Positions 23,466 to 24,608 of a stretch of 64,000 bases of DNA are shown here, piece after piece. The DNA lies in the NCBI GenBank assembly GCA_018664485.1, contig JABJOE010000009.1, forward strand, positions 4,108 through 68,107, written 5' to 3'. Numbering within the stretch: position 1 is the stretch's first letter; each line of letters begins with the position of its first letter. The notes beneath the pieces were generated by a model. It had not been told where the DNA came from, did not search any database, and was given only the letters and a program-made list of their open reading frames with translations. Source of the DNA: Candidatus Uhrbacteria bacterium (GTDB lineage Bacteria > Patescibacteriota > Patescibacteriia > UBA9934). The translations under genes were made by a program, and so were the position numbers.

Positions 23466-23568
23466 CTCATTTGAGAATAGTTCTAGGCGCAGGGAAGATG
23501 TTGAGAAGCCGTACCAATATGTACGGTGACGAATCATAGGGGCCCTGCAACACCGAAATAATCCAAAT
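23466..23568 (+). repeat. atp-operon intergenic conserved element, copy 1 (atpA-atpG spacer)
   Basis: About 80% identical over ~100 nt to the copy at 24506-24608. Shared blocks AGTTCTAGGCGC, cGTAC..GTACg hairpin with a changed loop, GGGCCC palindrome, GCAAC, CGAAAT, ATCCAAAT. Confidence 0.6.
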
Positions 23569-23584
23569 GAGACTGTTATAGCTT

Positions 23585-24484
23585 ATGGCTGCTAATGCTA
23601 AAGTTGTTAAGCGAAGGATCAAATCTATCGCCAATACGATGAAAATCACAAAGGCGATGGAGCTTGTTGCTGCGTCAAAAATGCGACGCGCGATACAATC
23701 CGTTCTAGGAACGCGCCCATATGCGCAACTTGCATGGCAAACGGTCAACGCTATATCTCGCGCTACAGGCGAAACAACACACCCATTACTTGAAGAGAAA
23801 CCTGATGCCACAAAAACACTTCTAATCCTCTTTACAGCAGACCGCGGTTTAGCCGGAGGGTATAACGTCAACATGATCAAAACTGCGATAAAAGCAGTAA
23901 AAGCGATCGATGACTCAGAAGTAGAAGCGATCTCAGTTGGTAAACGTGGAACAGCGGCACTCGCCAGAAACGAAGTTCCCGTCATCGCAACATTCGAAGA
24001 TCTTTCCAAAAAACCGGTCTTTGAAGACATACTTCCAATCGGAAACATGGTCATCGAAGCATTCATCCGAGGTGACTACAAAAGAGTTGTAGTCGGATAC
24101 ACAGACTTCATCTCCGGCCTCACTCAAAAGCCTCGCACCTTTGAACTTCTGCCACTTGGACAACCAGACGACGCTCTCGGAGACGTTAGCCGCGGAAAGG
24201 ATGAAGCAATTGAGGTTAAAGAGGCAAGTGAATATAAGTTTGAGCCTAATCCGCAAGAAGTACTCAACAGAATACTCGGAAGACTTGTCGAGACAATGCT
24301 ATACCAAGCGTTACTGGAGTCAACAGCATCTGAGCACTCAGCGCGAATGATGGCAATGCGAAATGCAACGGATTCTGCGAAGGACATGCTAGGCGAGCTC
24401 AAGTTTGCCTACAACCGACTGCGACAGGCCAGTATTACACAGGAAATTGCTGAAATTTCAAGCGGTAAGGCCGCACTAGAATAA
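23585..24484 (+). CDS. atpG: F0F1 ATP synthase subunit gamma
   Basis: N-terminal IKRRIKSI-NT-KITKAMELVAASKMRRA signature. Confidence 0.9.
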   Translation: MAANAKVVKRRIKSIANTMKITKAMELVAASKMRRAIQSVLGTRPYAQLAWQTVNAISRATGETTHPLLEEKPDATKTLLILFTADRGLAGGYNVNMIKTAIKAVKAIDDSEVEAISVGKRGTAALARNEVPVIATFEDLSKKPVFEDILPIGNMVIEAFIRGDYKRVVVGYTDFISGLTQKPRTFELLPLGQPDDALGDVSRGKDEAIEVKEASEYKFEPNPQEVLNRILGRLVETMLYQALLESTASEHSARMMAMRNATDSAKDMLGELKFAYNRLRQASITQEIAEISSGKAALE

Positions 24485-24505
24485 TTTACAGAAGAACAGG
24501 ACTGA

Positions 24506-24608
24506 CATATTTGAGGTCAGTTCTAGGCGCGGGGAAAGTAGTGAGGAAGCGTACTTACCTGTACGTTGACGAGATACAGGGCCCACGCAACAACGAAATG
24601 ATCCAAAT
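24506..24608 (+). repeat. atp-operon intergenic conserved element, copy 2 (atpG-atpD spacer)
   Basis: See copy 1. Confidence 0.6.

Follow-up and report, generated by a model that had tools for sequence, protein, structure and literature searches.

The window analysed here is a 64-kb stretch of a Candidatus Uhrbacteria genome (contig JABJOE010000009.1), and it contains an F-type atp operon in which the atpA-atpG and atpG-atpD spacers each form a single long imperfect hairpin when folded as RNA. The two hairpins resemble one another and are members of a dispersed and probably mobile structured repeat of Patescibacteria. Gene calls in the window were verified by Pfam, and the genes, spacers and hairpins concerned are as follows.

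19545-26544, + strand: F-type atp operon, atpB-E-F-H-A-G-D-C (gene calls and Pfam)
21947-23446, + strand: atpA (F1 alpha), 5' neighbour of copy 1 (Pfam ATP-synt_ab, E 1.6e-83)
23447-23584: atpA-atpG spacer, 138 nt
23456-23581, + strand: copy 1, a 126-nt hairpin filling the atpA-atpG spacer (fold z-score, covariance models, stem limits)
23481-23557, + strand: conserved core of copy 1 (model alignment, family consensus)
23585-24484, + strand: atpG (F1 gamma), with one copy on each side (Pfam ATP-synt, E 8.5e-89)
24485-24625: atpG-atpD spacer, 141 nt
24498-24619, + strand: copy 2, a 122-nt hairpin filling the atpG-atpD spacer (fold z-score, covariance models, stem limits)
24521-24597, + strand: conserved core of copy 2 (model alignment, family consensus)
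24626-25996, + strand: atpD (F1 beta), 3' neighbour of copy 2 (Pfam ATP-synt_ab, E 5.1e-73)

The initial annotation had described these two spacers as unusually long and as sharing a repeat of about 80% identity over ~100 nt. The lengths are confirmed and so is the repeat (family D2), at a lower identity than was given: 23458-23568 and 24498-24608 are 73% identical over 111 nt without gaps, and blastn aligns the copies at 75% identity over 100 nt (E 3e-13). The minimum free energy of the RNA is -47.7 kcal/mol for copy 1 (z -5.29) and -42.8 kcal/mol for copy 2 (z -5.53), and none of 200 shuffles folds as well. RNAalifold finds 36 pairs common to the two copies, eight of them kept through changes on both sides. 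The reverse strand of both copies also forms a long hairpin (z -4.7 and -3.6), and the plus strand folded as single-stranded DNA (ssDNA) gives z -4.9 for copy 1 and -2.2 for copy 2; the scores are best for RNA of the plus strand, which is the one modelled. Copy 1 has its base 9 nt past the atpA stop codon on one side and 3 nt short of the atpG ATG on the other; for copy 2 the distances are 13 nt from the atpG stop codon and 6 nt to the atpD ATG.

The atpB-atpE, atpE-atpF and atpD-atpC spacers of the window are unique sequences that do not belong to the family by covariance model or blastn. The last of these (25997-26097) had been noted as hairpin-rich and of different sequence, and it is indeed unique by blastn, markedly GC-rich and able to form three short hairpins; its structure is weak, with z -2.5. 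A scan for sigma-70-like promoters and terminator-like sites gave totals at the level of shuffles and none inside or beside either window element, which argues against the earlier suggestion of an internal promoter or attenuator. Directly 3' of atpC, at 26550-26611, lies a palindrome (AAAAACAG...CTGTTTTT) that looks like a bidirectional intrinsic terminator closing the atp operon.

Further copies of the element are recovered by covariance models only. A blastn search with both spacers against the window and the atp loci of relatives (one genome per species, 80 loci designated L001-L080, all Patescibacteria by record title) returns only the two copies themselves. The first covariance model, R1, was built from the two window copies, and R2 and R3 are a second and a third, later model; copy 1 scores 157.6, 122.3 and 121 bits, and copy 2 scores 162, 122.4 and 116.8 bits, with R1, R2 and R3 respectively. 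With filters off, R1 finds no additional strong copy in the window, and it matches in four of the 80 other atp loci. Three of these matches lie in the atpE-atpF spacer and are antisense to the operon (L004 at 1350-1480, with 59.9 bits and E 2e-9; L061 at 1405-1535; L080 at 1391-1521), and the fourth, in L012, lies in the atpB-atpE spacer in sense orientation. A six-member alignment has 39 pairs, 25 of them compensatory.

Metagenomes were then scanned without regard to context, using the core pattern GTAC-N6-GTACG-N-TGACG-N12-24-GCAACA, which yielded 24 loci; about 20 hits are true members (R2, 56-122 bits) and six loci are chance matches. Three of the metagenome loci come from the window's own genome, as short contigs whose Atp proteins are 100% identical. 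The family has 21 strong members, the two window copies and 19 more. Rfam 15 has no match over either window copy (E up to 10) or over nine other member loci (E up to 5), the core pattern has no exact match in viral contigs, and a literature search found no published description of such elements in Patescibacteria. The window also holds one weaker candidate:

50447-50545, + strand: probable diverged third copy, a 99-nt hairpin directly upstream of clpB (50565-53198)

This hairpin scores 23 bits with R2 (E 0.056) and, with filters off, 22.1 bits with R3 (E 0.005), and folds with z -6.26. It retains a closing stem, AUUUGG/CCAAAU, and CGUAC..GUACG at the apex, whereas AGGCGC and GCAAC have been lost; it is a probable decayed member of the family.

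The fold is strongly supported by covariation. In 26 model-aligned hits, 88.5% of cells hold standard pairs, compared with 61.5% in shuffles, and in 34 of the 39 pairs both partners have changed. The covariation score of 0.60 compares with 0.17 in shuffles and is not reached by any of 500 of them. When the partners are slid by 1-3 columns, pairing falls to 34-40%, and an independent MAFFT alignment made from sequence only recovers the inner 24 pairs, 17 of them compensatory. With 21 strong members and covariation of this strength, the initial annotation was right that structure is preserved at the variable positions.

The family has a conserved, asymmetric core of ~75 nt (AGGCGC/GCAAC; GAG-GA/GA-C-GA) carried on a basal stem of ~25 bp that is variable in sequence and strongly covarying in its pairing. 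Immediately above the basal stem the consensus has UUC/GAA, followed by internal loops UA/AAA and GC/AA around a G-C pair, these loops being the AGGCGC and GCAAC blocks. Next upward come a GCGGGG/CCCCGC helix, an AAA/AGGGG loop and a short covarying helix, and then two tandem G.A/A.G motifs split by a single G-C pair (5'-GAG-GA / GA-C-GA-3'). The apex is a 7-bp CGUAC stem that starts with a conserved G.U (13:0) and is capped by a variable hexaloop. The core of copy 1, for example, reads UUC-UA-G-GC-GCAGGG ... GAG-AA-GCCGUAC-loop-GUACGGU-GA-C-GA ... CCCUGC-AA-C-ACC-GAA. The apical stem with differing loops had been recognised from the outset and is present in both copies. Two other details read differently in the full fold: the conserved blocks taken to be single-stranded are mostly paired across the hairpin (AGUUC with GAAAU, CCAAAU with AUUUGAG), and the supposed GGGGCCC palindrome is not local, its CCC pairing with the GGG that follows AGGCGC and its G-run lying in an internal loop.

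G.U and U.G pairs outnumber A.C and C.A by 42 to 16, and purine-purine mismatches outnumber pyrimidine-pyrimidine ones by 52 to 8; the modelled strand therefore carries the signals of the strand that folds. Hairpin length is 115-129 nt in 20 of the 21 copies, and the outermost 15 nt of each arm differ wholly between copies, including the two in the window. The unit is the entire hairpin, with a conserved, strand-asymmetric core and a basal stem that is free in sequence and maintained in pairing and length.

Genomic contexts were read from Pfam and tRNA scans of the flanking genes, and orientation was tallied relative to those genes. Copies lie in short intergenic spacers between unrelated, mostly housekeeping genes and in either orientation, nine being sense and 12 antisense, and the strong copies occupy at least 15 different contexts. 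None of the 17 members that the context-blind scan found in other genomes is near atp genes. The two orientations and this dispersal are at odds with the atp-specific module that had been proposed. Contexts outside the atp operon are as follows.

LOG-family gene / leuS; rpsM / infA; rpsQ / rplN; sodA / clpB; rpiB / gap: one junction each with a family copy
alaS / unknown; ychF / DUF5671; yebC / ruvC; unknown / recG; upstream of mgtC: likewise with family copies
RNase J (rnj) / trpS/tyrS: two inverted family copies
tRNA-Ile (L089, L096) and tRNA-Ser (L101): family copies abutting the tRNA genes

Copies in ribosomal-protein operons differ in orientation, L083 being antisense and L085 sense. At L089 (787-1202) an inverted pair of copies flanks the tRNA-Ile gene, and at L101 (1279-3778) two near-identical inverted copies stand 2.1 kb apart around the tRNA-Ser gene and small open reading frames (ORFs), next to a large serine recombinase gene. 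No transposase or other enzyme gene is consistently found beside the copies, and no RAYT gene was seen, no search having been aimed at an autonomous partner or at RAYT. The window ORF at 28068-31001 was considered as the leuS of the L081 copy; it is unrelated, and its alignment fragments resemble a UvrD-type helicase.

Close relatives differ in whether they carry a copy. The closest AtpG match is a Candidatus Uhrbacteria metagenome-assembled genome at 71% identity, and in the five closest relatives (L001, L002, L004, L005 and L012; AtpG 59-71%) both junctions are 1-14 nt long, those of L001 reading TAA-TCT-GTG between atpA and atpG and TAA-AATACTATT-ATG between atpG and atpD. The window copies are therefore insertions in this lineage, and the cis-acting module that the initial annotation placed before atpG and atpD is absent from close relatives, an outcome that it had itself named as counting against a function there. 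A filled and an empty site can be compared elsewhere as well: in L061 the atpE stop and the atpF ATG are separated by ~150 additional nt, where its relative L042 (AtpG 89.7%) has a 10-nt spacer. The 70-nt atpE-atpF spacer of L043 does not match the L061 element significantly as a remnant (p about 0.06). Neither the hairpin boundaries of the 21 copies nor the L061/L042 comparison shows a target-site duplication, ones of 1-2 nt being possible.

The two window copies are not sisters. The core of the atpG-atpD copy is 86% identical to that of L081 and the core of the atpA-atpG copy 85% identical to that of L089, compared with 73% between the two, so that neither has the other as its nearest copy and a recent local duplication is not the source of the pair. 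Contigs with identical AtpG, which come from at least five samples, are clonal: the copies are fixed in them, and the atp spacers are identical apart from one single-nucleotide polymorphism, at window position 23552, an internal-loop position in the copy 1 core. Population variation is therefore uninformative. The window's genome is also recorded as a 986,404-bp contig in Joint Genome Institute (JGI) sample 3300072015.

We favour the reading, at a probability of roughly 0.6, that each spacer holds one ~125-nt self-complementary insertion element, of a dispersed family that spreads selfishly, carried as a passenger in the atp mRNA. Such spread would proceed without conserved terminal inverted repeats or an obvious target-site duplication, and the machinery of propagation would most likely recognise the folded single-stranded core, as RNA or as ssDNA. 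Two independent copies would have entered what were formerly 3-9-nt atpA/atpG and atpG/atpD junctions of this genome, and both would be co-transcribed with the operon. Compact folding is predicted to bring stop and start codons together across the base of the helix (9+3 and 13+6 nt), which would let expression of atpG and atpD go on. Folding would in this way restore the proximity that relatives obtain with 3-9-nt spacers, and this may be why the insertions are tolerated. An effect on mRNA processing or stability, for instance as substrate of a double-strand-specific RNase, would be secondary and lineage-specific.

Several points weigh against this interpretation. The case for mobility is one of distribution, since the copies come without a transposase, conserved termini or a target-site duplication. 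Although the outer stems diverge by 25-80% in sequence, pairing is maintained in all 21 copies; this resembles purifying selection acting on each locus, and would suit a host function as well as a selfish one. Template-switch 'quasipalindrome correction', in turn, can mimic compensatory changes in long DNA palindromes without selection. The three lineages that share an atpE-atpF copy in the same orientation could reflect target preference, coincidence or functional retention. Conservation of the GTAC, GTACG, TGACG and GCAACA columns in the metagenome members is partly by construction, because the scan pattern demanded them; AGGCGC and GAG were not demanded.

The retention of pairing at all loci makes a host function a serious rival. 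The element would then be an RNA module at many operons, a processing or stability site (for instance a substrate of a double-strand-specific RNase) or a platform on whose GA-rich core an RNA-binding protein docks; it would segment polycistronic mRNA and adjust how strongly neighbouring genes are expressed relative to one another, and in the atp operon it would isolate atpG, whose gamma subunit is needed in one copy, from atpA and atpD, with three each. Structure preserved through compensatory changes, conserved purine-rich internal loops that include the two tandem G.A/A.G motifs around one G-C pair, constant length, fixation in the population and enrichment near translation, energy and tRNA genes all agree with such a module, and since the reverse strand folds into a long hairpin too, a purely double-strand-dependent role could tolerate both orientations. 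We nevertheless regard it as unlikely. The element is missing from the same junctions in the closest relatives and is therefore not needed for atp expression, no orthologous position is conserved beyond the clonal population, and a strand-asymmetric core sits poorly with 12 antisense copies among 21. Restricting the module to the atp operon, as a coupling element, a setter of subunit stoichiometry, an internal promoter or an attenuator, makes it barely credible: it would account for two sense copies in consecutive spacers of one operon and for a copy somewhere in the atp operon of four other Patescibacteria, but those other copies occupy other spacers and are antisense in three cases out of four, the nearest relatives have no copy at either junction, promoter and terminator consensus is lacking in the two elements, and every one of the 17 members that the context-blind scan recovered from other genomes lies outside atp operons. 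An atp-specific regulatory RNA is accordingly not supported at the level of the family, being excluded by dispersal, use of both orientations, presence and absence between relatives, the non-sister relationship of the copies and insertion into very short spacers of housekeeping operons. There is room for a local, secondarily acquired effect of the copies on atpG or atpD expression.

Two further alternatives concern the molecule that is recognised or produced. The hairpin could act at the level of DNA, as an ssDNA hairpin or cruciform for a recombinase, an HUH/Y1-type transposase or a replication or repair protein, much as in REP/REPIN-RAYT or IS200/IS605-type biology, with the RNA structure incidental. 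A lack of target duplication and of conserved double-stranded termini, as seen here, is typical of single-strand transposition in IS200/IS605 and REP/RAYT, and the occurrence of both orientations, the inverted pairs around the L089 tRNA-Ile gene and the 2.1-kb segment of L101, and the significant ssDNA fold of the copy 1 plus strand (z -4.9) point the same way. We judge it improbable, however, given that the ssDNA fold is weaker than the RNA fold (z -2.2 against -5.5 in copy 2), that G.U pairs, one of them conserved, stabilise RNA far more than DNA, and that no candidate enzyme gene is consistently beside the copies; the opposite orientations of L083 and L085 also speak against any simple rule of replication strand. 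The copies could instead be a family of small RNA genes, each transcribed on its own from the modelled strand and lodged in spacers in either orientation. That would explain why G.U pairs, purine-purine mismatches and asymmetric loops mark one strand whatever the orientation of the flanking genes, and the layout, in which a variable basal stem carries a conserved apical domain, seems similar to that of 4.5S RNA and other small stable RNAs. This too is very improbable, for flanks are not conserved, Rfam has no match, the window copies have no sigma-70-like promoter or intrinsic terminator in or beside them, and only 3-13 nt separate them from the stop and start codons of operon genes that are closely packed.

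Hairpin-forming spacers extend beyond this family. In the 80 Patescibacteria atp loci, the stretch from atpH through A, G and D to C includes 85 spacers of 70-300 nt; 45 of them fold with a z of -3 or lower, and 41 form a single dominant stem-loop. Several unrelated palindromic families recur across spacers and genomes, in four groups:

L044, L063, L068, L042 and L059
L062, L077 and L020
L026, L065 and L075
L011 and L013

Some of these families consist of short periodic AT-rich units (the atpA-atpG and atpD-atpC spacers L063_AG/L063_DC, 85% over 115 nt; also L042_AG/L042_DC and L062_DC/L077_DC), and of all the families it is that of the window hairpins whose core is both complex and conserved. 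Most long operon spacers in these genomes are thus hairpin insertions and not regulatory leaders. The element may also be the best-defined member of an undescribed class of hairpin 'operon-spacer colonisers', in which the asymmetric GA-rich core would be an active nucleic acid that drives its own propagation, with no need of terminal repeats or target duplication, and the covarying, fixed-length basal stem would make insertion tolerable in operons that are essential and translationally coupled; the core could be a protein-recruiting or even catalytic RNA or ssDNA. That 45 of the 85 long atp spacers fold as long hairpins, of several unrelated repeat families, agrees with this view. We offer this wider scheme tentatively, as possible and still on the doubtful side.

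Other repeats were seen in the window. About 20 consecutive NNNNCTA heptads at 27447-27586, which the repeat search lists as eight overlapping 42-nt copies at 14-nt spacing, take up the spacer that lies directly upstream of a gene (27592-28005) for a putative carbonic-anhydrase-like protein (Pro_CA_2). At 48968-50260 and 54331-55056 there are two tandem paralogous ORFs (186 and 181 aa), each following a common block (D4, 82%) that is read as promoter- or ribosome-binding-site-like, and exact repeats of 33 nt (49565/50226) and 43 nt (54331/55014) occur there.

Patescibacteria have streamlined genomes of ~1 Mb, in which selfish or structured non-coding DNA is unexpected inside essential operons. 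The covariance model now defines a ~125-nt structured element, with 34 compensatory pairs among 39, that spans at least two Patescibacteria lineages (Uhrbacteria-like and Moranbacteria-like) and inserts between atp, ribosomal-protein, aminoacyl-tRNA synthetase and tRNA genes. For annotation, 'unusually long' operon spacers in such genomes are to be read mostly as hairpin insertions rather than regulatory leaders, and the element could mark recent genome change in uncultivated lineages. If functional, it would be a new RNA motif with a recognisable tandem-G.A core. Its importance would rise should the core prove active as a module of RNA or ssDNA, or should hairpin colonisation of Patescibacteria operons be a general and undescribed phenomenon.

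The element shares covarying secondary structure and conserved purine-rich internal loops with the structured cis-regulatory and small stable RNAs in Rfam; unlike riboswitches and leaders, it has no conserved position or orientation relative to genes. Hammerhead, group II intron domain V, K-turn and signal-recognition-particle-like motifs were considered on account of UGACGA, GAGCCGUAC and the tandem GA, and were set aside for want of invariant positions and of any Rfam hit; by eye, the element lacks, among others, C3 and A14 of the hammerhead as well as the bulge and the GNRA loop of domain V. Integron attC sites were likewise rejected. They carry conserved R''/R' core sites (RYYYAAC / GTTRRRY) at the base, have a variable centre and stand in a single orientation in cassette arrays, whereas here the base is variable, the centre is conserved, and the copies are solitary, between housekeeping genes and in both orientations.

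Resemblance is closer to dispersed repeats. Like a classical MITE, a miniature transposable element with inverted repeats, the element is short (115-129 nt), non-coding, multi-copy and dispersed, with empty sites in close relatives. Unlike one, it has arm ends that are not common to its copies, conservation that is confined to the core, and no visible target-site duplication, 1-2-nt ones being possible. REPINs, doublets of REP mobilised by RAYT transposases, are dispersed intergenic hairpins of ~100 nt, with no target duplication, with compensatory changes and a presumed single-stranded intermediate, and their architecture is the reverse of that found here, with REP conserved at the two ends, the hairpin base, and the apex variable. 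Correia elements bear 26-bp terminal inverted repeats that are well conserved, along with a TA duplication, and their hairpins are processed by RNase III. They are comparable as small hairpin-forming insertions between genes, and differ in the 26-bp repeats and TA duplication, neither of which is seen in the Patescibacteria element. In Neisseria these Correia/NEMIS elements (~104-157 bp MITEs) are co-transcribed intergenic hairpins that affect mRNA processing and stability (Delihas 2011, PMC3184786).

ERIC/IRU sequences are alike in being imperfect palindromes of ~127 bp that lie between genes, in or beside operons and in either orientation, with the conserved part central. Their hosts are Enterobacteriaceae and Vibrionaceae, and no sequence resemblance to the ERIC core is apparent by eye. 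ERIC copies are co-transcribed and able to alter mRNA decay, and ERIC-type elements are reported to have terminal inverted repeats, target duplications and a flanking TA (Delihas 2011, PMC3184786). The Patescibacteria element departs from them in having ends that differ between copies and no duplication seen, and in belonging to another phylum. The bcr1 element of the Bacillus cereus group (~155 bp) is dispersed between genes, is non-conserved in distribution between relatives, is transcribed, and has a predicted RNA structure kept by compensatory base changes (PMC3184786). Intergenic dispersal, patchy distribution and a structure maintained by compensatory changes are all common to the two, but bcr1 has 5-bp flanking direct repeats and conserved ends, neither of which the Patescibacteria element has, and the latter sets a conserved core on a hypervariable basal stem. 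The element therefore falls outside the definition of a MITE by terminal inverted repeats and target-site duplication, and belongs with the dispersed palindromic intergenic repeats, among which its architecture is unusual.

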